Part shown: positions 7,802 to 64,000 of the stretch, one piece after another | Position numbering within the stretch: position 1 is the stretch's first letter | How the letters are laid out: every line of letters begins with the position of its first letter | Assembly (NCBI GenBank): GCA_943788985.1 | Contig: CALSSJ010000026.1 | Location: 87,744-151,743, forward strand | Length of the DNA: 64,000 nucleotides | Direction: 5' to 3' | Source of the DNA: an uncultured Lentisphaerales bacterium | Lineage (GTDB): Bacteria > Verrucomicrobiota > Lentisphaeria > JABSQK01 > UBA12247 | The notes under the pieces: generated by a model | What the model saw: only the letters and a program-made list of their open reading frames with translations | Database searches by the model: none | What the model was told of the DNA's origin: nothing | Made by a program: the position numbers and the translations under genes

Positions 7802-8436
7802 GCGGCATGCTCGAAATCAATCACATTCAAAATCGTATTGGCGGCTTCCTCCACGTCCAGGGACACCCGTTCTACGCGCCGGGAGAAGACGTTGTGAAAG
7901 ATCACAGCCGGGATTGCCACGATTAATCCTGCGGCCGTCGTCACCAGAGCCATGGAGATGCCAGAAGCCACGGCTCCACCATCGAGTCCGCCCACAGCGG
8001 CCATGCTGTCGAATGAGGTAATCATGCCGACCACAGTACCGGTCATACCGACCAGCGGGGCCACGCTGCCGACCATGGCCAAGTAGTTCAGACGCTTCTC
8101 CAGCATCTCCAGCACGCGCGGCGCATAGTCGATCATCGCTCGGCTCACCAGCTCCGAAACCTGCCCGGTCTTCCCCGCCTCGGTCAGTTTCTGATAGTGC
8201 GACACGCCTACCAGCGCGACAGCTGCCGCCGGACCGCCCGTCTCCCGGCAGACCGCCACAGCCCGCTCGCAGGCTCCGTCTGACAGCGCATCACGGAGGC
8301 CCGCACAGAGCCCTTCGACATCAGCCTCGGCAGCGCGAAACGCCCGCAATCTATCCAGAATCACCCCTACCGCGAGGACGGATAGTCCCAACAACACAGT
8401 CATCATCATCCCACCATCCAACAGATACTGCAGCAT
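7798..8436 (-). CDS. MotA/TolQ/ExbB proton channel family protein
   Basis: 'APLVGMTGTVVGMITSF', 'GISMALVTTAAGLIVAIPA'. Confidence 0.93.
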   Translation of the reverse strand: MLQYLLDGGMMMTVLLGLSVLAVGVILDRLRAFRAAEADVEGLCAGLRDALSDGACERAVAVCRETGGPAAAVALVGVSHYQKLTEAGKTGQVSELVSRAMIDYAPRVLEMLEKRLNYLAMVGSVAPLVGMTGTVVGMITSFDSMAAVGGLDGGAVASGISMALVTTAAGLIVAIPAVIFHNVFSRRVERVSLDVEEAANTILNVIDFEHAA

Positions 8437-8683
8437 CCTCGATCTCCTTGTCCGCCAGTTATTTGCTCCCGGACGATATAGCGCAAGTCGCGTCCTGCAA
8501 CGTCCTCGCTAGCCCAATTCGTGTCTACGCGTGAGATTGTCGCTTCGCAGCCCTTGGGGGGAGCCCGTCTCACTGCAGGCAAGCAAAGGGTCAATGACAG
8601 CTCCGCAACTCTTGAACCGCATAGGAATTTGAATTTATGATCCGTCCGATGTTCCTTTATTTCTTGCAGGATAGCCTCGAATC

Positions 8684-8797
8684 TTACAGGAAGGAGCGAG
8701 AAGAAAAAGGAAGGGATCCGAGAGTAGTGCAACAGACTGATGAGTTGTCGCCAGAATGTCTTCTAACTCTCAGATCGGGCGCCCTTCCGTCCTGTAG
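8684..8797. repeat. Imperfect palindromic intergenic (REP-like) element
   Basis: 'tacagga...ggaagggatccgagag' pairs with 'ctctcagatc...cccttccgtcctgta'; related to the 'cttcctgtccttcctaccttcctgtaa' unit near 55382. Confidence 0.45.
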
Positions 8798-9379
8798 CAG
8801 AAAGCGATTGAATTACTCAGCCGGGGCCAGGCGCAGCGTTTCGCAATTGGCGAAGCGAATACAGCGCCGTCCCGTCTGAGAGAAAACCACGCCCATACCG
8901 CCGTTTACTCGCTCGCTCTTGCCGCACCACATCGGCACTCAGATCCATCACAAAAGCCTTGGATCCGATAATTGCTCCATCGGCCCAGTAGCATGCGCAG
9001 CCTGTCAACTGCAAGCGCGGCCCAGTTGAAACTGATCGGTATCCCCTTGTGCCCAATCCGCAGGCCGCGCCCACCTCGTGATCAGGGCACGTGAAGACGC
9101 GTAGTGACACCTCGGCCGAGCCAGAAAAACGACGCAGGAGACGCAGATTCTCTGACTAGAAATGGGACGCGCTGTCGCACTTCCAGTCGGGCCGCGCCCT
9201 TGATATGTCATATATTTTGATTTCCAGCTACTCAATTAGGACGTACTCACGGGCGACATGCGATCTGTAAAGTATCGGTTATGTTGTCGCATGCGCATTC
9301 TGATTCTCCGCTTCATTCTTTCGATTCAGCCTGCCGGTCATCGCATCAGTAGCTCCCTCACTGGCCGTCCGCTCTGTGT

Positions 9380-10705
9380 TTGCGTGGACTCTCAAACGTG
9401 AGTCAACGTGCGTTTCGTTTCGGCTTGCTCATTGCCGTTCTTTTTGGATTGGGCTTGAGGTTTGCCCATCTGGCGAGCTGCAAGAACTGGCTTTTCGACG
9501 AGTATTATTACTACTTTACCACTGCGGCGAGCGCCTATCAGGGTGAAGGCTTCAACGCGGCGTACAACACCGAGCGCGAGGGGATATTTGTGCCGCCGCC
9601 GGGTCAGTCTTGGTTCATCCTCGCGATGCTCCCGTTTTGCAGCTACACCCAGCCGGACGGCAGCCTTGAAGTGGTCATCGTCCTGCCAAAGCTAATTCAG
9701 ATCCTCCTCTCCGGATTTACGATCATTCTCTTCGGGCTCATTGGACGCCAACTGCGATCGCGTCTAGCGGGGCTCATTGCTGCCTTTTCTGCCGCGCTCT
9801 ACCCGGGGTTTGTTCATTGGTCCGGCTACCTGATGAGCGAGAGCAACTACCTGCTGGGACTCACGCTGCTTACCTGGCTACTGCTGCGCTGGGTCGATCG
9901 GCCGTACTACCGACGAGCGCTTCTTGCCGCAGCCGTTCTCGGCCTGCTCTGCTTTCAGCGCGGAAATCCCTTGCTTCTCGCCCCCACATTGGCTGGCTTT
10001 TCGATCTTCATCATGGGCTGGAAACGCGGGTGGCGTCCGGCGCTTACCTTCATGTTCCTCCCGATGTTTATCCTATTGCCTTGGCGACAGTTCAACGCCG
10101 AGCGGCATGGCGATCCAGTGTGGGTAAGCAGTAACTCCGGAATCCTCTTTCACTACGCGAATCGGATCAATCTCGATCCAGTGAAAACTCCGCACTGGGA
10201 CGACATGGGCAGCATCGCTCTCGTTTCTGAGATTGAGAGCCAGTTTCACCGTGAAGACGGTAAGCTAAATGCCACATACTATCGCTACGGACAGGCCTAT
10301 TTGGATCACGCGAAGGCATACGTGTTTGCCAATCCGGGACACTTCCTGCGCAACTACTTCCTCAAGCTCTGGAATCAATTCACCGTAGTGCCCAGTAACC
10401 CAGTCAGCTTTTTGCGAAGTCCGCAACTTTGGAGCTGGCTGCATCACCTTCTGCTCTTCGCCGGTACCGGTGGCTTTGTGGTCATGTTAACTCGTGCGCG
10501 CAACCGCCATGCTTTCCTACTGCTTACCGTATTCGCGTACTTCTCAGCATTCGGTGCGCTCTTTCATCTCACGCGCGATGGCCGCATGGCACTTGTGCTC
10601 AAAGTCTATCTTATCTTCTACGCAGCGTGGTTCATCGATTGGCTGTATTCAGCGCTTCGCACTCGGCGCTCGCAGTGCCAAGAGATCGCAGTCGCCGACT
10701 GCTAG
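9380..10705 (+). CDS. GT-C fold glycosyltransferase (ArnT/PMT family 39-like), multi-TM
   Basis: 'FDEYYY' in the first loop, 'PPG', 'ALYP...YLMSE', many TM helices. Start may be the GTG at 9398. Confidence 0.8.
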   Translation: MRGLSNVSQRAFRFGLLIAVLFGLGLRFAHLASCKNWLFDEYYYYFTTAASAYQGEGFNAAYNTEREGIFVPPPGQSWFILAMLPFCSYTQPDGSLEVVIVLPKLIQILLSGFTIILFGLIGRQLRSRLAGLIAAFSAALYPGFVHWSGYLMSESNYLLGLTLLTWLLLRWVDRPYYRRALLAAAVLGLLCFQRGNPLLLAPTLAGFSIFIMGWKRGWRPALTFMFLPMFILLPWRQFNAERHGDPVWVSSNSGILFHYANRINLDPVKTPHWDDMGSIALVSEIESQFHREDGKLNATYYRYGQAYLDHAKAYVFANPGHFLRNYFLKLWNQFTVVPSNPVSFLRSPQLWSWLHHLLLFAGTGGFVVMLTRARNRHAFLLLTVFAYFSAFGALFHLTRDGRMALVLKVYLIFYAAWFIDWLYSALRTRRSQCQEIAVADC

Positions 10706-11240: not shown

Positions 11241-13127
11241 TCATTGCTTCTCCTCTTCCACTTTCAGCGCTCGTTCGATTGCCGATATTCCCTTCGCGGT
11301 CGGGTTGTCCGGGCCGACGACCTGCGGGTAGGAGACCAGATAGTTGTTCTGGTCAATCAGGTTGATGTAATAATGGGTGGTACCTGCGGGCAATTTGACG
11401 GTCACCTGGTTTCCCGCGGACAGAGTCGCTGGGGTGCGCAGCCAGCCTCCCGGACCGCTCCGCTTGTAGATGAGGTCAGCGCGTACCACTGTGGCACCCT
11501 TCTCTTTATATGTCACAACAACGGTGTTCCCATTCCGCTCATGGGATAGCACAGTCGGCACCCACAGCTTCTCCCCCGTATTGCGGGGACACTGCGGGTT
11601 CAGGAATGGATAGCTGGCATTCCTTTCCGTCAGGATTTCCGTCAGCCGCTGAGCCATCGCCACAGTTTTCTCTGGCATGGCGCCAGCCAGGTTCTTGGCT
11701 TCCTCGATGTCCACCCGCTTCTGAGTGCCGTCTTCGGAGTTGTAGAGCCGGAAGAGCTCCCATTCTGGCTTGTCGAAGTAGTTGTGTACCAGCTTGTAGT
11801 CGCCGATACGAATCGTACTCTCCTGTGCTTTGCTCTGCGGAAAGTGCCAGACCATGGTGTCGCGGACACTCCCGTCTTGCTCTTTCACCAGGCTGGCATC
11901 AGATGGCTTCTTAGCCAGCAGCGTGCTGAGGTCGCAGCCGTCCAGCGTCTTACCAGTCGGCCTCGGCGTCTTCGTCCAGCTGAGAATGGTGGGGTAGAAG
12001 TCGAGTCCGTTGGCCATGACGTCGGTCTTCAGGCCCTTGGGGATGCCGGGGCCGGCAATGATCAGTGGCACACGCGTCCCGCCCTCCATGGCGGAGATCT
12101 TGCCTTTCTGGAGGGGGCGGTTGTCCGTGTACTTTTCTTTGGGGTCTCCCACCATTCCGCCGTTGTCCGAGGTAAAGATGAGGTAGGTGTTCTCAATCAG
12201 CTTGTGTCCCGGCCAACGCGGGTCATCCGTTTCTTTGAGATACTTCATGAGTTGCCCGGTGTAGTAGTCGAGCATCTCCACCATGGCGCCGTAGTAAGGA
12301 TTCTTCTGCCCTGCTTGATCTCTCACTTGAACCGGCCCGGGGCCGTCTGGAAATGGCAGGCCCATCTTCGCGCAGTATTTCTCAAGCAGCGCACGGGATT
12401 GGGTATGGATCGGTCCATGAACCAGCCAGGTGCACCAGTAGAGAAAGAAGGGCCGGTCTTTCGTTTGGGCCTGGTTCAGGAACTCGATGGCGTCGTCGAG
12501 ATTGTCGTGCTCTGGATAGCCATTTGCGTCAAGCGTGAACTTGGTGCCGGTCTCACCGGCGAAGACCTTGCTGCGATCCGGTGTCAGCAGAGTCCCCCCA
12601 CGGCGCGACCTGGAATAGTCAAAGCCCTGGGCATTTGCCGCCTTGGCATTGTGTGCGCCCATATGCCATTTCCCGGCATGGCCCGTGAAATAGCCATTGG
12701 TGCGGAGGACGGTCGCGATTGTGCGCTTACTCGTGGCGCCGCCTTGCTTCGACCACGGAGACAGGAAGGCCCAACCGCGGAAATGGTGCGGGGCAGGGGG
12801 AATCCCCCCGCCGACTCCGATCAAATTCGATCGCGCCGGAGCGATGCCACTCATGATCGCACTCCGAGACGGCATGCAGACCGGTGACGGCGAATAGCCC
12901 TGCCAGAACATCACGCCTTCTTTGGCCAGCGCATCGATATGCGGGGTTTCGTAGGGGGTCGGCTCGTCGATGTCATAGCAGACGACATCCTGCCAGCCGA
13001 GGTCGTCGGTTAGCAGCAGCAGCACGTTGGGCTTTTCGGGTCTGAGGCCATCGGCCAATGCCAACATCGTACCTGCCAGCAGACAGATGCCAACAGAGGC
13101 GGCTATCATTTCTTTGCTTCTACGCAC
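11241..13127 (-). CDS. Sulfatase (S1, Cys-type), secreted
   Basis: Signal peptide, 'PNVLLLLTDDLGW', 'CMPSRSAIMSG', 'GKWH', 'FTSDNGG', 'EGGTRVP'. Confidence 0.95.
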   Translation of the reverse strand: MRRSKEMIAASVGICLLAGTMLALADGLRPEKPNVLLLLTDDLGWQDVVCYDIDEPTPYETPHIDALAKEGVMFWQGYSPSPVCMPSRSAIMSGIAPARSNLIGVGGGIPPAPHHFRGWAFLSPWSKQGGATSKRTIATVLRTNGYFTGHAGKWHMGAHNAKAANAQGFDYSRSRRGGTLLTPDRSKVFAGETGTKFTLDANGYPEHDNLDDAIEFLNQAQTKDRPFFLYWCTWLVHGPIHTQSRALLEKYCAKMGLPFPDGPGPVQVRDQAGQKNPYYGAMVEMLDYYTGQLMKYLKETDDPRWPGHKLIENTYLIFTSDNGGMVGDPKEKYTDNRPLQKGKISAMEGGTRVPLIIAGPGIPKGLKTDVMANGLDFYPTILSWTKTPRPTGKTLDGCDLSTLLAKKPSDASLVKEQDGSVRDTMVWHFPQSKAQESTIRIGDYKLVHNYFDKPEWELFRLYNSEDGTQKRVDIEEAKNLAGAMPEKTVAMAQRLTEILTERNASYPFLNPQCPRNTGEKLWVPTVLSHERNGNTVVVTYKEKGATVVRADLIYKRSGPGGWLRTPATLSAGNQVTVKLPAGTTHYYINLIDQNNYLVSYPQVVGPDNPTAKGISAIERALKVEEEKQ

Positions 13128-13173
13128 TATTGACTTCTCCGTTTTGCGTTACGTCTTGGCCTGTTTATCGTGC

Positions 13174-15966
13174 CTAGTTCAGTGGGATATGCGCCTCGTC
13201 CATGAAGCCTTTCAGCCTGGTCAGGACTTCGGGGAAGGCATTGGCCAGGTTCTTAGTTTCGGCCAGATCGTCCTCTAGGTTGTAAAGCTCAATGGGCTGC
13301 AGCGTGCCGTTCTTGGCCACTTGAACCGCTTTCCAGTTGCCAGAACGAACCGAGCGAGCGGTGAACGGTATTTTGGCTCTCGCCTGAATAAACTCATGGT
13401 AGACGTATGGATGCTGTTTCTGCTTGCCTTTGCCGAGAAAGGTCGGCAGAATCGAGATGCCGTCGGACTGTTCGGGAACCGGCTGCCCGACGAGCTCCGC
13501 CATGGTCGGCAAAATATCCCAGAACGCGCTGAGATGTGCGCTTTCGCGACCAGCTACCACCTTTCCGGGCCAGCGCACGATGAAGGGGGCGCGGATGCCG
13601 CCTTCGTACAAATCGCGCTTGATCCCACGCAGGGGGCCGTTGGAATCCCAGAAGTTCGGGTCATGCCCGCCCTCCCGATGTGCGCCGTTGTCACTGGAGA
13701 ACAGGATCATGGTCGTGTCATCCACGCCGAGATCAGTCAGCATCTTGAGCAACTCGCCGATCTGGTTGTCAAAGTTTTCCATCATGGCCGCATAGCCGGC
13801 GATCGGGTTCTGCACGTCCGGGCAATCCTGGTCTTTCCCTGCGCCATAGCGGCCAATCTTCTTGTCAAACTGCGGATAGACTTTGCGCCACTTCGCGTGC
13901 AGGTCTGGTGGCCCATGCATCGCCGCATGGGGCACAGCGGTGGGGATATAGCAGAAGAAGGGCTTCTTGGCTGAGGCGTTGCTGCGTATGAAGTCAAAGG
14001 CGTCGGCCATGATCAAGTCGTGCACATAGGTTCCCTTGCTCAGCGGGATCTCTTTGCCGTCTCGGATGATGTTCTTTGGGTAGTAGGTGTGCGCGATGCC
14101 TTGGCTCTTCCAGCCGGAGAAGTGGTCAAAGCCATGCGTCAGCGGATTCGTAATGCCCTCGAGATGGGTGTGCCCTAGTCCCCACTTTCCGTAAGCGCCG
14201 GTGGCATACCCCCCATTCTTAAACAATCGTGGCAGAGTCGTCATGTTGGGATTGAGGGCAAAGTTGTTTTCGCTCCCGTTCCCCCGACAGTGGACAAGCC
14301 CGGGGTGCTGCCCAGTCATCAGGACTGCGCGCGACGGGGAACAGACCGTATTGCCGGAATAGTGATCCGTAAAGCGCATGCCTTCGGTCGCAATGCGATC
14401 GATGTTGGGTGTCTTGAGCTTCTTCTGTCCGTAGCACCCGAGGTCGCCATATCCGAGGTCATCGGCCAGGATGTAGATCACGTTGGGCCGTTGTGAAGGA
14501 TCTGAGCCTGCCTTTCCTATCTCCTGCTGCGTCTTTCTGCTCCATGCGTCCGTATCTTCGCGATGACCAGCTTTCTCTTTGGCTTCCTGGTACCTTGGGT
14601 TCCACTTCGTCGGGACGGGACAGTTCAGGGCAGTGCGCCACTGCTTCATCATGGCGTGAAGCTCTGCAGCTTTCTCTGGTGCCTTGGCTGCGATGTTTGT
14701 GCGCTCCCCCACATCCGCGGCCATATCGTAGAGTTCCAAGCGACTATCTTCGAAGTACTCGTGCAGTTTCCACTTCCCGAGCCGCATGGCGGAGCCGGGA
14801 CGAGTGCGGAAAAGCGGGTCGTGTGAATCGTCGGCTGCACCGGCGTATTGCTGCAGATAGACGGGGAAATGCCAATACAGGGCGCGCTCGGGAAAAGCGC
14901 CGGTTTGCGTCAGCAGCGGCAGCAGGCTGACGCCGTCCAAGACCTTTCCGGCTGGCGCCTCCAGCCCGGCGGCTTCCACAAAGGTGGGATAGAAGTCGAT
15001 GCCGATCACCGGCACATCGCTCGTAGTTCCTGGCGTGACCTTTGCTGGCCACCGCACCAAGAGCGGTTCGCGGATGCCTCCTTCGAAATAGGAGCCCTTG
15101 CCAGAGCGGTACGGAGCCTGCGTGGAGACATGTCGCATGCCGCCGTTGTCGGAGGTGAACAGAACAAGCGTGTTGTCCTTGAGGCCCAGTCGGTCGAGTT
15201 CGGCCACGATCTTGCCGATGCTTTCGTCCATCTTCTCGATCATGGATGCATAGGCCGCGTGGATGCCCGCCACGTCCTTGTACTTCTCCACCAAGCCCAG
15301 CACTGGCTGAAACCCCGCATGCACAGCGTAGTAGGCCATGTGCATGAAGAACGGCTGTTTTTTGTTTGCCTGCATGAAGGTGATGGCCTGATCTGCAAAG
15401 ATATCGCAGCGGTGTGTGCCTTTGGGATACTGACCGCTGAACGGCTGCATGGGGCCACTCTCGAAGGGCGAGAAGTAGCCCCCACCACTCGGACCGCCGG
15501 TCTTGCCGCCGCCGATGTTGATGTCAAATCCCTGTTTTGTGGGGTCTTCGCCTAAATGCCACTTCCCGAGGTGGATGGTCTTGTAGCCGCCGGCTTTGAG
15601 TGCCTCGGCCATCGTCACATTCTCGTCGGGAAGGTAGCGCGTGTTTGGTACGGGGATGAGCTTGCGGTCGGACGCCTTGCCACGTTCGGACGAGCCCACG
15701 GTATAGACTCCATGCCTGGCGGCATACTGCCCGCTCATGCAGGCTGCACGACTCGGCGCGCAGTTTGCGGCTGGCGCATAGGCTTCGGTGAAGACCATCC
15801 CTTCCGCTGCTAACTGGTCGAGGTTCGGCGTTCGATACTCGGTACGCCCCATGAACCCCACATCCATCACGCCGAGGTCGTCGGCGTTGAAATAGATGAT
15901 GTTGGGCTGCTTCGCTACCGTGACGATGCTTGCTAGAAGCAGGAGAATCAGGGCTGTTCGTTTCAT
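13174..15966 (-). CDS. Tandem double-domain sulfatase (two complete S1 domains)
   Basis: Domain 1 'PNIIYFNADDLG...CAPSRAACMSG'; domain 2 'PNVIYILADDLGYGD...CSPSRAVLMTG'; a single N-terminal signal peptide. Confidence 0.95.
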   Translation of the reverse strand: MKRTALILLLLASIVTVAKQPNIIYFNADDLGVMDVGFMGRTEYRTPNLDQLAAEGMVFTEAYAPAANCAPSRAACMSGQYAARHGVYTVGSSERGKASDRKLIPVPNTRYLPDENVTMAEALKAGGYKTIHLGKWHLGEDPTKQGFDINIGGGKTGGPSGGGYFSPFESGPMQPFSGQYPKGTHRCDIFADQAITFMQANKKQPFFMHMAYYAVHAGFQPVLGLVEKYKDVAGIHAAYASMIEKMDESIGKIVAELDRLGLKDNTLVLFTSDNGGMRHVSTQAPYRSGKGSYFEGGIREPLLVRWPAKVTPGTTSDVPVIGIDFYPTFVEAAGLEAPAGKVLDGVSLLPLLTQTGAFPERALYWHFPVYLQQYAGAADDSHDPLFRTRPGSAMRLGKWKLHEYFEDSRLELYDMAADVGERTNIAAKAPEKAAELHAMMKQWRTALNCPVPTKWNPRYQEAKEKAGHREDTDAWSRKTQQEIGKAGSDPSQRPNVIYILADDLGYGDLGCYGQKKLKTPNIDRIATEGMRFTDHYSGNTVCSPSRAVLMTGQHPGLVHCRGNGSENNFALNPNMTTLPRLFKNGGYATGAYGKWGLGHTHLEGITNPLTHGFDHFSGWKSQGIAHTYYPKNIIRDGKEIPLSKGTYVHDLIMADAFDFIRSNASAKKPFFCYIPTAVPHAAMHGPPDLHAKWRKVYPQFDKKIGRYGAGKDQDCPDVQNPIAGYAAMMENFDNQIGELLKMLTDLGVDDTTMILFSSDNGAHREGGHDPNFWDSNGPLRGIKRDLYEGGIRAPFIVRWPGKVVAGRESAHLSAFWDILPTMAELVGQPVPEQSDGISILPTFLGKGKQKQHPYVYHEFIQARAKIPFTARSVRSGNWKAVQVAKNGTLQPIELYNLEDDLAETKNLANAFPEVLTRLKGFMDEAHIPLN

Positions 15967-17579
15967 TGGGGGCGATACTTTCGTTCAGTAGTGTTTCTGG
16001 GCCGACTGCGGCCAGCGTCCAGCAACTTCTGCAATTCGATTTTCATACGCTGAAAGACTTCAGGATGCAGTGTGGCCACATCGTTGGATTCAGCCGGATC
16101 ACTCTCCAGATCATAGAGGGTGTGTGTGAATGTCAGCGGAGCACGATTGCCATCCGGTTCGCCAGCCTTCTTTCTGGGGGCTCTGTTCGGTTTCCGCTGG
16201 AGCTTCCATGTTCCTGCTCGGTAGCCGAAGGCGCTGTTGACACCGTCTCTTCCATTATCCTGCTGAATCAGCTGGCTGCGTCCTGAGGCTCCGTCTTTGC
16301 CGAGGAGGGCGGGCATCACGTCCAGGCTGTCCAGGCAGGCATCGCCTGGGATCGGCACGCCAAGATACGTGGCGAGGCTGGCTGCCAGGTCAATGGTGCA
16401 GACCACCTCATCGGATACACCCGGCTCGATCGTGCCAGGCCACCAGGTGATGAAGGGCGTCCGGGTGCCGCCTTCCTGTATGCGGTATTTCCCGCCTGAA
16501 AATGGCCCGGCGGGCTTGTGGTCATGGAGCTTTTCCTTAGCCCCGTCCTTGTAGCCGTCGCCGAGCACCGAGCCGTTGTCCGAGCAGAAGACAACCAAGG
16601 TATTCTTCTCCACCCCCTGCTCCTTGAGGATCTTGATGAGTTCGCCAACACTCCAATCCAGCTGGACGATGGCATCGCCGCGCCAACCGGTGCGGGATGT
16701 TCCGTGAAAGCGTTCATGCGGCATGCGCGGCACATGGATGTCGTGCGAGGCAAAGAACAGAAAGAAGGGATTGTCTTTGTTCCGCGTGATCCACTCCCTG
16801 GATTTCTCCACCCACTTATCGGCGAGGTCTTCATCGCGAAAGCGGGCCGCATGGCCGCCGGTGTAGAACCCGATTCGGCTGATGCCGTTGTGAATCGTGC
16901 TGTTATGGCCATGGCTCCAGTCCATCTTCAGACTCTCGCGGTGAGTCTTGCCCGTGGGATGGTCCAGCCCCGGGCGATGATGCCCAACCCAAAGCGGGTC
17001 CGCAGGATCAAGATTCAGGACGCGGTGGTTTTCCACATACACCTGCGGCACCCGGTCGTTGGTGGTGGGCAACAGGAATGAATAGTCGAAACCGATTTCG
17101 AGCGGGCCGGGCTTCAGATCGCCATTCCAGTCCGGGCGTTTGTTCCCCAATCCGAGGTGCCATTTTCCGATGACAGCAGTCTTATAGCCGCCTTTTTGCA
17201 ACAGATCGGGCAGGGTCACGACATCCGGTCGAATCAAGGCGGGAGAATTTGGACCAGCGATCCCCGTTCCCGTCACGCGGAAGGCGTGGGTGCCCGTCAA
17301 GAACGCATAGCGGGTCGGCGTGCAGGTGGCGGCGGAGCAGTAGCCACTGGTAAAGCGAATGCCTTCGGCGGCGAGTCGGTCGATGTGCGGAGTTTTAATG
17401 TTTTCCGGCCGGGCTCCGTAACAGCCCACGTCACCGTAGCCAAGATCATCCGCCATGATGACCACGATATTGGGCCGTTTCGCTGCTGCCTGCTGATTCG
17501 ACGCGAGTCCAGCATCGGGCGCCGCATTCAGTCCGACGGCGACAGCAAGGACTGCTTGCAGTATGGTGAGATAGCGCAT
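15963..17579 (-). CDS. Arylsulfatase-like S1 sulfatase
   Basis: 'PNIVVIMADDLGYGD', 'CTPTRYAFLTG', 'GKWHLG'. Start ATG 17579 (alternative 17636). Confidence 0.95.
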   Translation of the reverse strand: MRYLTILQAVLAVAVGLNAAPDAGLASNQQAAAKRPNIVVIMADDLGYGDVGCYGARPENIKTPHIDRLAAEGIRFTSGYCSAATCTPTRYAFLTGTHAFRVTGTGIAGPNSPALIRPDVVTLPDLLQKGGYKTAVIGKWHLGLGNKRPDWNGDLKPGPLEIGFDYSFLLPTTNDRVPQVYVENHRVLNLDPADPLWVGHHRPGLDHPTGKTHRESLKMDWSHGHNSTIHNGISRIGFYTGGHAARFRDEDLADKWVEKSREWITRNKDNPFFLFFASHDIHVPRMPHERFHGTSRTGWRGDAIVQLDWSVGELIKILKEQGVEKNTLVVFCSDNGSVLGDGYKDGAKEKLHDHKPAGPFSGGKYRIQEGGTRTPFITWWPGTIEPGVSDEVVCTIDLAASLATYLGVPIPGDACLDSLDVMPALLGKDGASGRSQLIQQDNGRDGVNSAFGYRAGTWKLQRKPNRAPRKKAGEPDGNRAPLTFTHTLYDLESDPAESNDVATLHPEVFQRMKIELQKLLDAGRSRPRNTTERKYRPQ

Positions 17580-56935: not shown

Positions 56936-57859
56936 ATGACTGAAGATACAAAAGCCCCCAACCAGCCCCGGACGATCCTTTTCGGGAAATCCGAGTACAC
57001 GTTTCCGAGTGATGAATTGCGTCCGCTACGCGATAGCAGCGATGTCTTGGGAGATGCCGAGGCGATGCGGGAACGTCTGGCCGAGGATGGGTTTCTCTAC
57101 CTGCCCGGTTTTCTGGACCGTGAAGAAGTGCTGGCCGCGCGTCGGGAGATTCTGGCCTACATGGAGGAACAAGGCGGTCTCGAGCCGGACTCGCGCCCAT
57201 TGGACGGGGTCATGGGCCAGTACGGAAAAGGCGTGCCGATGATGGGGCGAAAGCTAATTACCCATCGCGACGCAGTGTCGCGAGTGCTGGCTGCACAGAG
57301 GTTGTACGAATTGCATGAGATGATTCAGGGCGAACCGGTGACGACGTATGAGTACAAGTGGCTGCGGGCCGTTGGCAACGAGGAATTCACGGGTGCGCAC
57401 ATGGACCACGTCTATATGGGCCGCGGCTCCAAGCGGCTGATGACAGTGTGGATTCCGTTGGCAGACATCCCCGTGGAACAGGGAACGCTGTGCATCGTTC
57501 CGGCAACCCACCGCCTTCCCGAGTTTGAGAAGCTGCGCAATACCTATGGGCGAATGGACGTGGACCGAGACCGGACTGAGGGCTGGTTTACGAAGAAGCC
57601 GCGGGAAATTACAGATACATTCGGCGGCTGCTGGCATACGACGAATATTCAGGCAGGGGATGTGATTACATTCGGGATGCATCTGATGCATGCCTCGACG
57701 ACCAACCTGACGGACAAGTGGCGGATATCCTGCGATGTGCGCTTCCAGCCATCTGCTGACCAGATTGATCCGCGCTGGGCGGGCAAAGAGCCCAAGGGAC
57801 ACCGACCGGCTCCTGATGAACGCCCCATGGCCGAAGCCCGGGCCGAATGGGGAATATGA
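56936..57859 (+). CDS. Phytanoyl-CoA dioxygenase (PhyH) family Fe(II)/2OG oxygenase
   Basis: 'EDGFLYLPG', HxD 'TGAHMD', 'TVWIPLADIP..QGTL', 'AGDVITF...MHAS..N...WRISCDVRFQ'. Confidence 0.9.
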   Translation: MTEDTKAPNQPRTILFGKSEYTFPSDELRPLRDSSDVLGDAEAMRERLAEDGFLYLPGFLDREEVLAARREILAYMEEQGGLEPDSRPLDGVMGQYGKGVPMMGRKLITHRDAVSRVLAAQRLYELHEMIQGEPVTTYEYKWLRAVGNEEFTGAHMDHVYMGRGSKRLMTVWIPLADIPVEQGTLCIVPATHRLPEFEKLRNTYGRMDVDRDRTEGWFTKKPREITDTFGGCWHTTNIQAGDVITFGMHLMHASTTNLTDKWRISCDVRFQPSADQIDPRWAGKEPKGHRPAPDERPMAEARAEWGI

Positions 57860-57974
57860 TAGTAATCAGCTGCACGAATCGAGGGGGTCACGCGGAGCGC
57901 GTGCGCTCGCGTGAATGGCCTCGCCGAACCGAGAGAATCATGGTTGGAAGAATCACGATGCTGCCAGACACAGG

Positions 57975-58382
57975 AAGGAAAAGCTGCTGAAGGATTGGCA
58001 GCTGATGGAGAAGATTGCTGATGCTGGCAAAATATGCGTGTAGCGATTCGGGCCAGAGCCGACACCCGATTCAGCGCTGTCGCAGGGGGCTCACGAGGCC
58101 CCAATCACTCACAGGACCAAGCAATAGGCCGACTTGTCTCGAAAGCAATTGCCGTTCTATCTCTCAGTGTACCTGATCGGTGCCCAGCCACATTCCTATT
58201 TCCAGTGGAATTGGGTCTGGGACTTGAGAGCGGGGCCGCTCGAACACTATCCAGAATTTCAGCGACCGCTGGGCAAGTACCGGCGGGTTCACCCGGATCG
58301 CTGGGAGTTTACCCGCGACTTTGAGCACGTCAGCGTCTGGGTCGATACAGAGAAATGGCAAGCGAACCTGGACTGGAAATAG
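57975..58382 (+). pseudogene. C-terminal remnant of a GHL15-like hydrolase, paralogue of 17719-18828
   Basis: 'KDWQLMEKIADAGKICV*RFG...YLIGAQPHSYFQWNW.WDL..GPL...EFQRPLGK' aligns to the 17719 ORF; TAG at 58041 replaces Trp. Confidence 0.85.
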
Positions 58383-58391
58383 CCTCCTGTA

Positions 58392-58448
58392 AAGCGCCGC
58401 CCCAACATTCTTTTCCTGTTATCAGATCAGCAGCGAGCGAACACTCTG
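58392..58448 (+). pseudogene. Sulfatase N-terminal micro-remnant
   Basis: 'KRRPNILFLLSDQQRANTL'. Confidence 0.5.
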
Positions 58449-58500
58449 AACGTTCGAATCGAAGCTTGTTGCCCCTGCCCCCGTCCTCAACGCCAAAGAC

Positions 58501-58552
58501 TGGTTAGCGCTGAGCTCCCAATCTAGGTAGGGAGCTCAGCGCCAATCATTTT
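58501..58552. terminator. Strong hairpin, probable intrinsic (possibly bidirectional) terminator
   Basis: 13-bp perfect stem gcgctgagctccc / gggagctcagcgc, extendable to about 19 bp, followed by tttt; lies between convergent units. Confidence 0.55.
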
Positions 58553-58685
58553 GAACAGATTGGTGATGGCCGTCGGCTACGAGCCAGAGTACCAACTGAG
58601 TACGATGACTCCGATCAATCCGAACCGCAATCGTCAACCACGCACTGCACCTGTTAGCGCCAAGGCGCCATAGGTGAGTGCGGGG

Positions 58686-58744
58686 TTATAACGTCACTCC
58701 TCAGGCGCGGCCTTCAGGACGTCGCCTGCAGGAGATGGTTCGGT
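58686..58744 (-). repeat. attC site A (59 bp)
   Basis: Minus: ACCGAAC catct CCTGCAGG ... CCTGAGG agtgac GTTATAA; L'' carries one extra base. Confidence 0.9.
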
Positions 58745-60337
58745 TCGTCCTCTGTAGGCGGTGTTTGCCCTGGTTGAACGTTGCATGCTTTTCATGGATG
58801 TTGCTTTGTCCCGTTTCGCAGATGTCTGCTCCTTGCTCTCGCCCGGGTTCACATACCACTCGCTGTCGATATGGGCTTCGGTAAAGACCTGCCTGAGTCT
58901 GTCGATGACCTCCGGATTGCTTTTTGCTAGATCATTCTTGCACGCAAGGTCCTCAGTGACGTCATACAGCTTTATCGGTTTGGAAGGGTGATCCCGGTAT
59001 GCCCACCACTGATCCAGGCGAATACTTTGAGCATGCGGTGACATGGTTCCATTCTCCCAATAGAGATATCGATGTGTCTCTTGTTCATCCGGTTTGCCGC
59101 GCAGTATCGGGGCGAAGCTGATCCCATCGGTTTTCGGGGGAGCGATACTTGCCAGGTCGGCTACCGTTGCCAATACGTCATACAGGGCGCAGAGGTGGTC
59201 ATTTTCTCCTGCCTTAATCTTGTCCTTCCAATAGACGAAGAAGGGAACTCGCACACCACCTTCATGGGTGGAGGTGAACTTCCCTTTCGGCCATGGACCT
59301 TTGTTCTTGAACAGAGGATCATCCTCATGTCGAGGTCTGCCGAAGTACCCCCACTGGCTGTATCCATTGTCACCGGCAAAGAAGATTACGGTGTTATCCA
59401 GGATCTCAAGCTGCTCCATCAGGTCAACCATCCTTCCAACGCCGCGGTCCAGGTGCCCGAGCATGGCTGCCCATTCCTTGTGTTTCAGGTCCCAAGGCTT
59501 GTCTTTGTAGGCTCCAAGGTCGGGTGTGATACACGGGCCGTGGGGAAGTTGGGTTGCGTAGTAGAGGAAGAAAGGTTTGTCCCGGTTCTTTTTAATAAAC
59601 GAAAGAGCCTCATCCTGGAACAGGTCTTCGGAATATTTTGCCGCGGCGGCGACTGGGACACCGTCGGGGACGAGGTGCCCATGCTCGTCGTATATGTTCT
59701 TCACGTCGTCCAGTCTATCTGGCGGACGCCCATTGTAGGTGTAAACACGCTTCATGTTGAATCCGTAATTCTCAGGAATCGGCTCCGGCTTCCCGTTTCT
59801 CATCAGGTAGTGGGGGAAGAAGCCATGAGCCCGCCCCTGATCGTAGTATCCGTACGAGAAGTCGAATCCCTGCTTGTCAGGAGCTCCCTCGGTGCCGGGC
59901 AAACCAATGCCCCACTTGCCGATAAAACCTGTGGTGTACCCGGCCCCTTTGAGCACCTCGGCCACCGTGACATCCTCACTCAACAGGTGATCCTGTCCCC
60001 GGACTGAACTATTTGCGCGGATACGGCAATGTCCCATGTGCATTCCGGTCATCAGGCTTCCGCGGGATGGGGCGCATTCCGGCGAACCGCTATACGCCTG
60101 AGTGAACCGGATGCCGTTCATTGCCAGCTTATCGAGATTGGGAGTCCGAAACTGCTCTTGTCCGTAGCTGCTCAAATCGCGGTATGACAGGTCGTCTGAG
60201 AAAATGAACAGTATATTGGGCTTGCGCTCGAGCTCTTTTGCGAGCGTCGAGCAACAGAGCATCGCCACCGTAATCATACCCAGACCAAGGTGTGTCAGGA
60301 TGTGCCATTGTCCAAAAGCTCGTTTAGTACTTGTCAT
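58694..60337 (-). CDS. Sulfatase (S1, Cys-type) carried as a gene cassette
   Basis: AGGAGG RBS right after attC B; 'PNILFIFSDDLSY', 'CAPSRGSLMTG', 'GKWG', 'HEGGVRVP'; stop codon lies inside attC A. Confidence 0.95.
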   Translation of the reverse strand: MTSTKRAFGQWHILTHLGLGMITVAMLCCSTLAKELERKPNILFIFSDDLSYRDLSSYGQEQFRTPNLDKLAMNGIRFTQAYSGSPECAPSRGSLMTGMHMGHCRIRANSSVRGQDHLLSEDVTVAEVLKGAGYTTGFIGKWGIGLPGTEGAPDKQGFDFSYGYYDQGRAHGFFPHYLMRNGKPEPIPENYGFNMKRVYTYNGRPPDRLDDVKNIYDEHGHLVPDGVPVAAAAKYSEDLFQDEALSFIKKNRDKPFFLYYATQLPHGPCITPDLGAYKDKPWDLKHKEWAAMLGHLDRGVGRMVDLMEQLEILDNTVIFFAGDNGYSQWGYFGRPRHEDDPLFKNKGPWPKGKFTSTHEGGVRVPFFVYWKDKIKAGENDHLCALYDVLATVADLASIAPPKTDGISFAPILRGKPDEQETHRYLYWENGTMSPHAQSIRLDQWWAYRDHPSKPIKLYDVTEDLACKNDLAKSNPEVIDRLRQVFTEAHIDSEWYVNPGESKEQTSAKRDKATSMKSMQRSTRANTAYRGRTEPSPAGDVLKAAPEE

Positions 60338-60355
60338 TTTGTCGTAGCCTCCTGT

Positions 60356-60482
60356 ACCGAACGTCAAAGCTGACCCACGCCTGAACGGAGAGCGAGCTTT
60401 GACTTCAGGATGATTGTTTGGCCGGACATTGCGCTTTCGACTCGCAGCGGGGCAGGCGTTGGCGTCCAGCCGCTTGTTCGCT
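60356..60482 (-). repeat. attC site B (127 bp)
   Basis: Minus: AGCGAAC aagcg GCTGGACG ... GGTCAGC tttgac GTTCGGT. Confidence 0.9.
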
Positions 60483-60493
60483 CGCGAATGCCC

Positions 60494-61531
60494 CTACTTC
60501 TTTGCTTCCGAGCGTTTGAGGTAAATGGACTTGTCATAATAGGACACATGAGCATCGGTTGCGTTCAATACATCCATGCCAATGATACACGAATGTTTTT
60601 TGATTTCTCCCGAAACTACAGACGTCCTGGGGCGCACACCGGCAATCGATATTTTTCCAATTCTGAATTCCTCGAGTTCAACCCGTTCCGATTTATGAGA
60701 GTGGCCGTTCGCATTCGTTGTGCCTCCCCCCGCAGCCCCGCCCGACCCGCTCAATGCCTGATTCCTGTAAGGCCTTTGGATTCACCGCCGTTTTGGTGGC
60801 GCCCGTATCAAGGAGAGCCCGCATTTTCTTCCCGTTAATTGAGGTCTCGACCAAGGTTCTCTTTTTTTTTGCAGAAGGGAATGAAGCAATATCTCCAATT
60901 GGGGCAATCAAATTCGATTGGGTGGCGATAGTATGCCTCCTGGTCGGTGAAAGCGTCCCGAGTTGGAAAGCTGACATCGGCACCCTTCTCAGGCACTTCG
61001 AGCAGGAGGGCCTGATCGGGAATAGAAAGAATGGCATGAAGCGACTTCATGACATCCTCTCCAATGATGGCCACAACAGGCGGGGCGTCATCCCCCTCTG
61101 CTTGTACAACAAGCTGAAAATCATCCGCATTGTTCGCCACAACGGAAAGAGGGCCGATTTGAAAGTGGATATCCACCTCATAGGACTCATGGACCTCACC
61201 CATCATACCATAAATGGTTTTTTCCCGCTGGCCTGTCGGCAATCTCGAACCCGCGTTCCTGGAGATAAGAGCGATTAAATCTGGTTTCCATCGCTCCTGT
61301 ATCTAGCATGGCGAAGGCCTCTTCTCCCCCGACAACGATCCGGATGAAGAGATGTCCTGAATCGTGAATATCGGAACAGCGACCGCATAGCAGACCTATT
61401 TTTCCCTTCTCAAAAGGGTGCACATAAAAGACGGGCTTCCTGGATATCTCGCTTGCGGAAGGAAAGATGACCGCGATCAGCACCGCGACGGCTGCGGCGA
61501 AAACCGACAAAAGTAAGATTCTGCGCGGCAT
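60494..61531 (-). CDS. Cassette-borne retropepsin-like aspartyl protease with two DTG domains, broken by frameshifts in homopolymer runs
   Basis: 'FAMLDTGA' and 'RALLDTGATKTAV', 'IIGEDVM', 'IIGMDVL'; frame changes near 61220, 60865 and 60730. Confidence 0.75.
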
Positions 61532-61543
61532 CGGTAGATTATG

Positions 61544-61602
61544 AGCGAACGTTACGAGTGACCCTTCGCGGGCCCGCGATAAACTCCCCACGCTGGTTGG
61601 CC
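61544..61602 (-). repeat. attC site C (59 bp, L'' arm degenerate)
   Basis: Minus: GGCCAAC ... tcgcgggcccgcga hairpin ... GGTCACT cgtaac GTTCGCT. Confidence 0.75.
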
Positions 61603-61981
61603 GTTCTTGTTTCAACGTGAATCTGCATACAAGCAGAGAAAGCAGGAGCACGAGATAGGAACCGGGCCATCCGACCCAGAGATTACATGGTGTCGCAACG
61701 ACTATCCATGTAAGCGCCGATGCTCCGGTGATCATGCCGACCTTGACGGGCGGGAGTCTCCATCCCAGAAGGGTATAGAATGGCCACGAGATGATCGCGC
61801 AGACCGCAACAGGCATCGACAAGCCCAGCAAGAAAGGAGGATGGTGGAGCGTGGACAGCCCATGAGCTAAGAAGACCTCCGGCAGACTCAGCGTTTGCAC
61901 GATTAGCCAAGCCGTAGCGAAGACGAGCGACGAGATGACGCTGACTCCGAGGTACGCGATGACTCTGTGCATTGTTTTCAT
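61603..61981 (-). CDS. Cassette-borne small 4-TM membrane protein (no stop codon before attC C as assembled)
   Basis: ATG 61981 just after attC D; four hydrophobic segments; frame runs through attC C. Confidence 0.6.
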
Positions 61982-61987
61982 TTTATC

Positions 61988-62063
61988 GGCGAACGTCCAA
62001 GCTCACCCGATGAGGCCGGCCGCGGAGCGCCTGGCCGAATTAGGGTGAAGCGCAGTGTTCGAT
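61988..62063 (-). repeat. attC site D (76 bp)
   Basis: Minus: ATCGAAC actgc GCTTCACC ... GGTGAGC ttggac GTTCGCC. Confidence 0.9.
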
Positions 62064-62102
62064 TGCATCGGCAGCCGAGTTGACATGACGAGAGAGATCA
62101 GT

Positions 62103-62444
62103 TTATGAAGGGTCAGCAACGGGATCCTCTCCAAATCTGTTCGGACCTGTGGTCCCTTTTAGAAAGCAAATTTCTGTCAAAGGCCATAGGTTTACGAGTG
62201 GAACTAGGTAAAGCAAAATAAACCATCCGGAGCGGTTGCGATCATGACACCGCTTGATTTGGACTGCCAAGAATACCCAAATCGCTAAGAAACCAACTAT
62301 AGAAGAAAATAATTCCCGCTCTATTAGGCCATCAATTATGCCCACGATGATAGATATACCTGCAAATGCCAAATATGTCCTCAACCAGAGATCGGACCGG
62401 CTTGCCCTTCCCTTTGGTGAGAACCACAGTGTTATTATATTCAT
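62103..62444 (-). CDS. DUF805 family membrane protein (cassette)
   Basis: 'FSPKGRASRSDLW', 'AVQIKRCHDRNRSGWFILL', 'KGTTGPNRFGEDP'. Confidence 0.92.
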   Translation of the reverse strand: MNIITLWFSPKGRASRSDLWLRTYLAFAGISIIVGIIDGLIERELFSSIVGFLAIWVFLAVQIKRCHDRNRSGWFILLYLVPLVNLWPLTEICFLKGTTGPNRFGEDPVADPS

Positions 62445-62466
62445 TTCATTTCCTTTTATCTAGTGA

Positions 62467-62564
62467 ATCGAATGTCAAACGCTCGCCGAATCAGGTCGAG
62501 TGCCTTTAGGCGTCCCCGCCGGGAGGAGGTCTTGGATTTAGCAGTTAAGCATATGAAGTTCGGC
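62467..62564 (-). repeat. Degenerate attC site E (right half recognisable, R' = ATTCGAT)
   Basis: Minus '...GGCGAGC gtttgac ATTCGAT' resembles the right arms of B and D; TTCGAT matches the R'' of attC D; left boundary uncertain. Confidence 0.55.
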
Positions 62565-62623
62565 CCCTGGCCTCAACTTCCCGCTCATAAACAGCTTCCG
62601 TGTGCCATCAGCAAATCTTATGT

Positions 62624-62682
62624 AGCGAACGTCACTCCTCAGGCGCGGCCTTTAGGACGTCGCCTGCAAGAGATTGTTCTGC
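62624..62682 (-). repeat. attC site F (59 bp, same family as A)
   Basis: Minus: GCAGAAC aatct CTTGCAGG cgacgtcctaaaggccgcg CCTGAGG agtgac GTTCGCT. Confidence 0.9.
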
Positions 62683-63396
62683 GGCTCTTCGTTCGTCTCG
62701 CATTACTGAGATCTGCGCTACGAGAAAAACTATGCCCAGTGCGAGGACACACAGTCCGACCGAAAGGAAGATGAATGTAACCCCCCGAAAGCCTGGCTCG
62801 AGTAGACACTTGCCCGGCTTATCGGGCATATAGTAGACGCGAGCACTGCTACCCTTGGGGTAGCGTTTGACGATGCGTCTTGCATGGGCCGACTTGCCTC
62901 GGCTAACATCTGTAGATGCGACACGATCGCCTTTGTATGTCACGCCATCAACGGTGAACTCATAAGTGACTTTGGCATGGTAAGATGTGCTTCTGTCCGT
63001 TCCGCTTCCCGACGTTTCACGCTCGACCACGGACTGCAGGATTCGGGCTTCGGTGCTGGGCCAGGTTCTGCTCTCAAAGCCCAGGGCAAGACCATGGATG
63101 CCGAACGCGGTAAATACTGTGCCAACCACGAGAAAAAGGGAAATGAAGCCCCATGTGGCTTTTGACTCCTGTTTTGCGGTCAGGGCGGGACGTGATGACG
63201 GCGCGGGCATGGCTTCCGGGAACTGCTCACTCATCCTGGAGACAATGCGTCCGGTCTCCATCGCGGCTTGAATCTTGCCAAGGCCCTTCTGCTCTATCAG
63301 TAACTGAGCCGCTTCCCGACACCTGTCTTGATAAATAAGGTCCTGAACGTCCCTGGGCACATCTTCCAAGTACTGCCTCTCACGCGTGTCATTCAT
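62632..63396 (-). CDS. DUF3592-like membrane protein (cassette)
   Basis: 'SRTWPSTEARILQS...VTYEFTVDGVTYKGDR...YPKGSSARVYYMPDKP..CLLEPG' between two TM helices; stop lies inside attC F. Confidence 0.85.
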   Translation of the reverse strand: MNDTRERQYLEDVPRDVQDLIYQDRCREAAQLLIEQKGLGKIQAAMETGRIVSRMSEQFPEAMPAPSSRPALTAKQESKATWGFISLFLVVGTVFTAFGIHGLALGFESRTWPSTEARILQSVVERETSGSGTDRSTSYHAKVTYEFTVDGVTYKGDRVASTDVSRGKSAHARRIVKRYPKGSSARVYYMPDKPGKCLLEPGFRGVTFIFLSVGLCVLALGIVFLVAQISVMRDERRAAEQSLAGDVLKAAPEE

Positions 63397-63410
63397 CCTT
63401 CCATCTCCTG

Positions 63411-63469
63411 GCAGAATGCCACTCCTTAGGCGCGGCCTTTAAGCTGCCGCCTGGAGGAGATTGTTCGTA
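63411..63469 (-). repeat. attC site G (59 bp, same family as A/F; R' = ATTCTGC)
   Basis: Minus: TACGAAC aatct CCTCCAGG cggcagcttaaaggccgcg CCTAAGG agtggc ATTCTGC. Confidence 0.85.
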
Positions 63470-63472
63470 CTG

Positions 63473-64000
63473 CTATTGTACTTCTGCTTCAAAAGCCCCT
63501 GCGACAAAGCTCTTTGCCTCGTCCGGCAGGCGCAGATGAATCTTGCCGGGTATCTTGCCGTTCGAGGCGGTGCCGAACTCCAGTTTCATGGAATAGCCTT
63601 TTAAATAGGTTTCCGATTCGGGCAGCCTGCTGCCCTCGACCTTGTATTTCAAATAGATATGCGGTTGCTGCACTTGACCTTGCCGATTGGGTTTGACGAG
63701 GATAGTTTTTCCTGCAAGCTCCTTGACGGACGAACCAAGGATAAAAATTTCAAAGGCTTGATCGGGGAAGAAGCCTTCCCCCTGCATTAATTTCAGGTTT
63801 CCCTGGCTGCTCAGCGTCGCCTTTTCGACGGTGAAGGCAACGCCATGAACACTTCCCTTGGCCGTTCCGGCGGGGATGTCGTTTTCAGTCACATCGGCCG
63901 CCGCTGGTGGAGGGGGGGCATATCGTTTTGCAAAAGCCTCTTTGCTGATTCGGTTCAAGACAAACTTATCCTTCTCCCAGCTGAGCGTGAGTTGATCGTG
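63473..64000 (-). CDS. Hypothetical cassette protein, 5' end beyond the window
   Basis: Frame open to base 64000; stop 3 bp before attC G; C-terminal 'KGYSMKLEFG....KIPGKIHLRLPDEAKSFVAGAFEA'. Confidence 0.7.
   Translation of the reverse strand, partial: HDQLTLSWEKDKFVLNRISKEAFAKRYAPPPPAAADVTENDIPAGTAKGSVHGVAFTVEKATLSSQGNLKLMQGEGFFPDQAFEIFILGSSVKELAGKTILVKPNRQGQVQQPHIYLKYKVEGSRLPESETYLKGYSMKLEFGTASNGKIPGKIHLRLPDEAKSFVAGAFEAEVQ

Follow-up and report, generated by a model that had tools for sequence, protein, structure and literature searches.

An integron attC family read as coding sequence by its cassette genes, with a stop codon just ahead of the crossover point

Two cassette genes that end inside their attC sites

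The window analyzed here, a 64,000-nucleotide (nt) stretch from an uncultured Lentisphaerales bacterium, carries genes on the minus strand only in its final 5.4 kb. Two of these open reading frames (ORFs), a sulfatase and a DUF3592 protein, end in the same peptide, AGDVLKAAPEE, encoded together with its stop codon within two 59-nt copies of a repeat. The repeat is an integron attC recombination site of one widespread family and lies at the far end of a cassette array. An earlier note, made from the letters of the window, had drawn attention to the identical tail on two unrelated proteins inside an attC, and the ORFs, the shared DNA, and the Pfam assignments all bore this out. The sulfatase ORF (58694..60367, minus strand) has the C-terminus ...TEPSPAGDVLKAAPEE* and matches Pfam Sulfatase (PF00884, E 1.5e-51), and the DUF3592 ORF (62632..63396, minus strand) ends in ...AEQSLAGDVLKAAPEE* and matches PF12158 (E 2.7e-17). 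The window contains two mismatch-free occurrences of a 33-nt core that includes the stop, against 0 expected from 100 shuffles. The sole difference over the 11 codons of the named tail, CTG versus CTA, is synonymous, as had been claimed; 5' of these codons, within the same attC, the differences are nonsynonymous (EPSP versus EQSL). In both ORFs the TGA stop is followed by one base and then by the GTT of the R' box, and the attC spans 59 alignment columns from R'' to R'.

The final recombination site of the array, attC copy 1 (R'' to R', 58686..58744, minus strand), codes EPSPAGDVLKAAPEE plus TGA. It belongs to repeat family D7, gave a covariance-model match of 74.3 bits at 58684-58748, and folds as bottom-strand DNA with -14.8 kcal/mol (z -3.57). 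The sulfatase cassette gene is translated across this copy, with its TGA at 58694-58696; its start is most likely the ATG at 60337, located behind an AGGAGG motif, rather than the TTG at 60367, which would place the gene at 58694..60337 on the minus strand. Cassettes homologous to this sulfatase and bearing an identical tail were found at two other loci, L036 and L129. Copy 2 (62624..62682, minus strand), which codes EQSLAGDVLKAAPEE plus TGA, matched the covariance model with 77.5 bits, and the DUF3592 cassette gene is translated across it. Copy 3 (63411..63469, minus strand) is diverged: its match reached 53.1 bits, it is 81% identical over the repeat match at 63415-63466, its tail stop has become TGG, and the gene upstream does not read it. 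That gene, a cassette ORF cut by the contig end (63473..64000, minus strand) for which no Pfam family was found, has its own TAG stop at 63473-63475, 2 nt ahead of the R'' heptamer of copy 3, in the same register, and 7 nt ahead of the conserved repeat. This genome holds these three copies only.

Copies of the family were collected with a pattern for the 3' half of the attC, which gave 59 loci in one-genome-per-species contigs (the genome set), and with a pattern for the 5' half alone, which gave at least 122 metagenome loci (the metagenome set). One of the 59 genome loci, L061, is a match by chance within a gene. On the gene strand the site consists of R'' (..GAAC), three unpaired bases, a 5' arm, a small loop, a 3' arm, an unpaired T-R-R-C, and R' (GTT..). 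In an alignment of 135 copies the three AAC/GTT core pairs were standard in 119, 124, and 126 copies, respectively, the fourth outer pair covaried (GC 36, CG 17, UA 3), pair 22-48 showed compensatory changes (CG 121, GC 7, UA 1), and the inner helix was 95.9% paired. The 5' arm has two extrahelical bases (G at column 21, A at column 28), and the central spacer has 3 versus 4 unpaired bases. Folds of the bottom strand of the copies ranged from -13.9 to -14.8 kcal/mol (z -2.0 to -3.6). A repetitive extragenic palindrome (REP)-like repeat or a terminator was excluded by the lack of a T-run, the array context, and the AAC/GTT cores; in an Rfam scan of 57000-64000 the attC matched no family.

Besides the three family copies the window carries additional attC-like sites, each behind minus-strand genes, and additional same-strand attC-like covariance-model matches were found in 14 of the 58 genome-contig loci searched (74 sources scanned). 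The genome encodes an integron integrase (TIGR02249, 302 bits against a cut-off of 265) whose C-terminal half is 57% identical to IntI1. It lies on contig C20, different from contig C26 of the window, and is divided between two overlapping frames (8399..9103 and 9090..9707, within 8399-9707 of C20, locus L007), owing either to an assembly error or to a genuine frameshift that would leave the integrase inactive. Contig C20 also carries ten minus-strand cassette-like ORFs with attCs of other types, reaching the contig start; the end of the window is the end of contig C26, and the two contigs are likely joined. At 6 family loci intI-like ORFs flank the site. In contigs of three sequencing runs the DUF3592 cassette is joined to different DNA leftward of 62626, 3 nt from the G|TT crossover, and this alternative junction is consistent with cassette movement. 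RNA-library contigs from two runs of one study, which may hold carried-over DNA, covered 28 and 23 of 30 bins of 58400-64000; such coverage is no proof of transcription, of a single transcript, or of translation.

Reading frame of entry and the stop triplet before R'

Entry into the attC was determined as open reading upstream of the site in each of the three frames, counting raw stops only and with an ORF threshold of 90 amino acids (aa) for the genome set. In that set, 39 of 61 sites had an ORF of at least 90 aa running through the hairpin, in the frame of the AGD tail, to the stop at +30, and 0 were read in the other frames. The same frame was read through at 50 of 81 informative unique metagenome sites among the matches listed. 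One candidate off-frame read-through, at L073, was rejected, being an open frame that overlaps a real WbsX-like gene. Deduplication of both sets left 143 unique sites (the metagenome part from the matches listed), comprising 89 that were read through, 52 that were not, and 2 undeterminable ones. It had been proposed in the earlier note that this attC family supplies captured genes with a stop codon and a constant tail, and that a frame bias should be sought across its members. All 89 read-through ORFs turned out to use the AGD frame, with 0 in the other two, and they fall into 70 blast clusters, which supports the proposal. These counts are of sites and of blast clusters; the tests assume independent sites, which holds only partly, and phylogenetic independence is not implied.

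The read-through genes range in length from 91 to 541 aa or more. Homology of the genes as the source of the common tail was discarded, as blast showed none. In a Pfam search with 37 read-through proteins (the 39 of the genome set minus the two of the window), 14 had a match and 23 had none; the families represented were MORN, GHL15, BNR, GH10, GH43, WbsX, sulfatase, ferredoxin, GNAT/YoaP, PBP-like, glucuronyl esterase, and dual-specificity phosphatase. Cassette genes without a stop of their own cross the R'' box in the one register [NNN][SAA][C..], and 16 codons are then read through both arms. This permissive frame was found in 108 of the 134 cassettes with a long upstream ORF. A guard of off-frame stops just upstream of the attC was not enriched in the read-through cassettes, the values being 42% and 29% within 27 nt versus 29% and 37% in a control 150 nt upstream.

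The stop triplet at the 3' edge of the site lies one base ahead of the GTT of R' and 2 nt ahead of the crossover point. Its first base was T at 61 of 61 genome sites and at 85 of 85 metagenome sites among the matches listed, and two purines follow (T-R-R). At the read-through sites the triplet was TGA in 42, TAA in 26, and TAG in 20, with a single TCG in a copy whose 3' end has been replaced; TGG was found in 0 of 88, where 9.5 would be expected under independent purines (Fisher p 2e-7). The sites that are not read through had TGA (18), TAA (18), TAG (11), TGG (3), TGC (1), and TAC (1). TGG thus occurred in 3 of 50 sites with an unused stop versus 5.9 expected (p 0.11), copy 3 of the window being one of these cases. 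The T-R-R is held at the DNA level, and the stop-abolishing TGG is purged only where the stop is in use; where a gene uses the stop, translational selection maintains it.

In about 25 of the 61 genome sites the next long ORF begins 4-32 nt past the stop, a statement of geometry only. At six loci (L014, L048, L054, L084, L103, and L179) R' reads GTTATG, and at L039 TGATG, which puts an ATG 4 nt past the stop; a GAGGAG in the 3' arm, 7 nt upstream of that ATG, resembles a ribosome-binding site lent to the following cassette. A long ORF clearly opens at this ATG in L014 and L039 only.

The best explanation, toward which we lean modestly, is that the attC is translated, with the tail as a by-product and the stop under selection, and that the register is favored for a translational benefit. 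A rival account, a neutral ratchet, invokes no such benefit. The attC would be kept for recombination alone, and genes that lost a stop in the permissive frame would run on to the T-R-R, where a harmless acidic tail persists; native stops a short way upstream of R'' would drift among frames through small indels, and reading into the site in another frame would be purged for its bad tails and unreliable stops. Consistent with such a ratchet, the genes that use their own stop end mostly 2-20 nt before R'' and do so in all three frames (19/17/9 by site, chi-square p 0.15; about 16/12/8 with duplicates collapsed), and transitions between junction states by point mutation and by indel are seen. L071 reads through, while its relatives L114 (81% identical) and L113 (66% identical) have a TGA at -29 in a different frame, within an indel-rich linker. 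In the WbsX family the triplet at -24 is TGA in L018, TAA in L073, and CAA in L167, and L032 has a 12-nt deletion there. The lack of a selective signature in the peptide also fits, as does the stability of the DUF3592 junction, which is the same as in the window in the homologues L069, L088, L094, and L154, with about 31% identity across the final 40 codons. The numbers sit poorly with it, however: read-through genes outnumber own-stop genes of the same frame by 89 to 19 sites, and the share of cassettes in the permissive frame lies far above one third. Moreover, L113 and L114, which are 72% identical to each other, have both retained the other-frame TGA, so some selection on frame use is needed that this account leaves unexplained. 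We regard it as possible but doubtful.

The tail peptide, diverged sites, and the spread of the family

The AGDVLKAAPEE tail is a by-product of DNA conservation and not a selected peptide. Outside the stretches of the attC that the search pattern fixes, mismatches at codon positions one, two, and three numbered 60/59/39 in 82 metagenome sites among the matches listed and 67/31/21 in 61 genome sites, the third positions being the least variable. The V of the tail gives way to S, R, A, D, N, G, or I and the L to P, Q, K, or R. The ratio of synonymous to nonsynonymous codon changes is similar whether the copy is translated (25/54) or not (9/33). The low variability of third positions and the other tails encoded by diverged attCs both argue that the peptide is not selected. 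A protein search with the last 40 residues of the DUF3592 protein gave 19 candidates, of which only the query itself was below E 0.001; it was uninformative, since a match of 16 residues cannot reach significance against 5.8 billion sequences.

Among the roles that the earlier note had offered for the tail was that of a functional tag, a constant C-terminus recognized by a protease, a chaperone, or an export system and marking cassette proteins. An acidic C-terminal end could shield a protein against C-terminal proteolysis, and the presence of the same 11-16 residues on at least 70 unrelated proteins is what a tag would produce. Yet the third codon positions vary least, the V and L codons change to those for S, R, A, D, P, and Q, the synonymous ratio does not depend on translation, diverged attCs encode unrelated tails, and the carriers span secreted, membrane, and cytoplasmic families. 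A tag is therefore very improbable. The by-product option of the same note fits the tail sequence itself, and its option of a device for translational coupling fits the selected stop and the fixed register, the benefit being what we infer. The note had held that its reading would fail if the read-through frames were random and the peptide showed no conservation beyond that imposed by the DNA hairpin; the latter is what we found, while the frames are far from random.

The covariance model also matched diverged attCs with other stems and hit lengths of 62-87 nt. Of these, 14 of 31 have the same arrangement, with an ORF that reads through to a T[AG]A stop immediately ahead of the R' core (CGTT in 11, a degenerate form in 3); these ORFs have from 170 to at least 500 open codons, three being cut by the locus start. 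Their tails differ, for example ..GGDGKPAPQP, ..DPFADPEE, and ..SGKAQE, and the position of the stop is identical. In one diverged type the other two frames contain no stop before the crossover, and three diverged attCs are entered in the same frame, with the ORF ending at an earlier point within the site.

The titles of the records holding genome loci name Planctomycetota, Verrucomicrobiota, Kiritimatiellia, Lentisphaeria, Victivallales, Desulfobacterales, Ignavibacteriales, and Rhodohalobacter, among others. Several of these loci lie on contigs longer than 100 kb, and mis-binning is possible for small contigs. The covariance model derived from the copies matched 10 of 60 relatives, with 1-4 copies each. 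The family looks like a shared cassette pool rather than the array of a single lineage. In the WbsX-like genes of L018, L032, L073, and L167 the attC DNA is conserved far better than the cargo, and in one pair the proteins are 45% identical and the attC DNA about 89% (counted by eye). At L193 and L202, both in one relative (G034), sulfatase copies carry the attC tail (..LKAAPKE and ..LKVAPKE) but have CTT instead of GTT at R'; these may be cassettes fixed in place. At L066, L092, L151, and L192 a GAT stands at R', and after it, where the start of a cassette would be expected, comes a GC-rich palindrome (GGGGCC..GGCCCC), which may mark the array end or the insertion of another element at that point.

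The rest of the array in the window holds candidate sites of different types, recognized by eye. One, at 61988..62063 (minus strand), has the form GAAC ... GTTCG with an inner inverted repeat and stands behind a DUF805 cassette gene (62103..62444, minus strand; Pfam E 4.8e-23). The other, at 60356..60421 (minus strand), lies ahead of the sulfatase cassette and has TGA-C-GTT at its 3' end. Between these candidates, three minus-strand ORFs (61196..61981, 60835..61242, and 60494..60754) resemble a single cassette gene split by single-base differences, and a contig from a DNA run has one base fewer at each of positions 60736, 60862, and 61218; the ORF at 60494..60754 has a weak match to a gag-type aspartyl protease. 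Directly past the last attC, outside the array, lies a near-perfect inverted repeat (58497-58547), whose sole Rfam match was a chance one to a microRNA (E 0.78). Far from the array, at 11600-17500, several sulfatase-like genes stand in tandem, and their conserved blocks make up the repeat families D2, D4, D6, and D12.

Comparison with class 1 cassettes and the origin of the register

We compared the family with eleven annotated genes from four class 1 integrons. Five of the eleven (dfrA7, catB3, aac(6')-Ib-cr, dfrA14, and a HAD gene) end with the R'' TAA, in the register [NNN][TAA][C], five (arr-3, blaOXA-1, qacL, aadA2, and estX) have their own upstream stops, and for cmlA1 the 150 nt inspected contained no attC. 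Of the 10 class 1 attCs read, none has a T-R-R before C-GTT. The likeness to class 1 sites extends to the R''-L''-loop-L'-R' hairpin, the AAC...GTT cores, the extra unpaired bases of the 5' arm, and the unpaired spacer, and, as in class 1 cassettes, the attC stands at the 3' end of promoterless genes of the same orientation and overlaps the gene stop. The class 1 register also equals the [NNN][GAA/CAA][C] of this family. The difference is that R'' here is GAAC or CAAC and offers no stop at the 5' edge; because GAA or CAA replaces TAA, reading continues, the 16-codon hairpin is translated, and the stop falls at the 3' edge.

The common register raises the question of whether the lock is historical, that is, whether the attC was joined to the gene at its stop codon in a fixed register when the cassette was born, for instance by a top-strand integrase exchange at the AA|C of R''. 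If the register were the footprint of such welding, the classical R''-TAA stops and the read-through tails would be two outcomes of one birth mechanism, and thousands of gene-attC junctions would become data on the unsolved origin of cassettes. Besides the register of the five class 1 genes, it is in keeping with this that conservation falls exactly at the AAC of R'' and that the matches to the GHL15, GH10, WbsX, DUF4357, and YoaP domains extend to the end of the profile 5-21 residues short of the tail, which suggests that whole genes were joined near their natural end. We nevertheless judge it unlikely. L071 seems to have acquired its read-through secondarily, starting from a relative whose stop lies in a different frame; a third of the cassettes end at stops of their own, which fall in random frames; none of the six family copies with a T in R'' stops at the resulting TAA; and a known mechanism is lacking.

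We return to the explanation that we favor, in which the site is translated for a benefit. Reading in the AGD register would be favored, or would be the sole one tolerated, since translation then finishes before the crossover, and the protein end would be independent of the neighboring cassette. Ribosomes would stay on the mRNA across the hairpin, to about 15-30 nt short of the start of the next cassette, and the untranslated folded gap that lowers the expression of downstream cassettes in class 1 integrons would be removed. The benefit is probably the closing of this untranslated hairpin gap between cassettes. According to one study, the attC and the stop codon overlap in most resistance cassettes, and downstream expression doubled when translation was carried on as far as the attC (PMC11511950); according to another, attC hairpins in mRNA impede ribosomes, and a short ORF contained in the attC relieves the block (PMC8876359).

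The nearest counterparts are ORF-11 and ORF-18 of attI1 and the short ORFs of attC (Hanau-Bercot; Jacquier et al., reviewed in PMC8876359). There, too, translation across the site ends near the next cassette, with hairpin opening and help to the next gene proposed and the stop placed relative to the core site. In those systems, however, the reading is done by small, separate ORFs that have start signals of their own, and the stop of ORF-11 comes from the inserted cassette, beyond the crossover, whereas here the 3' end of the cassette gene itself reads the attC and the stop lies before the crossover. The attCs of sedentary chromosomal integrons, such as the Vibrio repeats and those modeled in PMC8352920, including Planctomycetes, resemble this family in their conservation of sequence and structure; the family differs in having 1-4 copies per genome and in occurring in records of many groups. 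A literature search, with supplements and subscription papers outside its scope, brought up neither a fully translated attC family nor a conserved stop before R'.

Several observations weigh against the favored explanation. The stop triplet is retained in 47 of the 52 copies that are not read through, so the conservation of T-R-R is in part a matter of the DNA. The other two frames also meet stops inside the attC, at +10 and +23, in about 80-87% of the copies, and the gap and hairpin argument therefore predicts a frame preference and not the total absence of other frames. Loop variants at L119, L112, L123, and L171 are entered in the AGD frame and stop in the loop, so complete translation of the hairpin is not obligatory. 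Possible exceptions to the rule itself are an 84-aa ORF at L026 that enters in a different frame and ends within the 5' arm and, among the diverged sites, L014:606, which stops in the 3' arm in a different frame, and L015:659, which runs past R'. The unused TAA in the six family copies with a T in R'' counts here as well.

The site is usually treated as a noncoding hairpin that genes overlap by a few bases; in this family the whole of it is coding. Annotation practice limits the overlap of ORF and attC to 15 bp, according to two reports (PMC2674596; PMC1382264), and such read-through genes would thus be trimmed or discarded. Rules that cut back or drop ORFs intruding by 15 bp or more are probably mis-trimming the cassette proteins of environmental bacteria, those of the PVC group included. 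The stop triplet by the crossover amounts to translational selection inside a recombination site and provides a natural counterpart to the experiments in which untranslated attC regions depressed downstream cassettes. Because classical resistance cassettes use the same register, a simple rule for the gene-attC junction follows that can be tested and that bears on the origin of cassettes.

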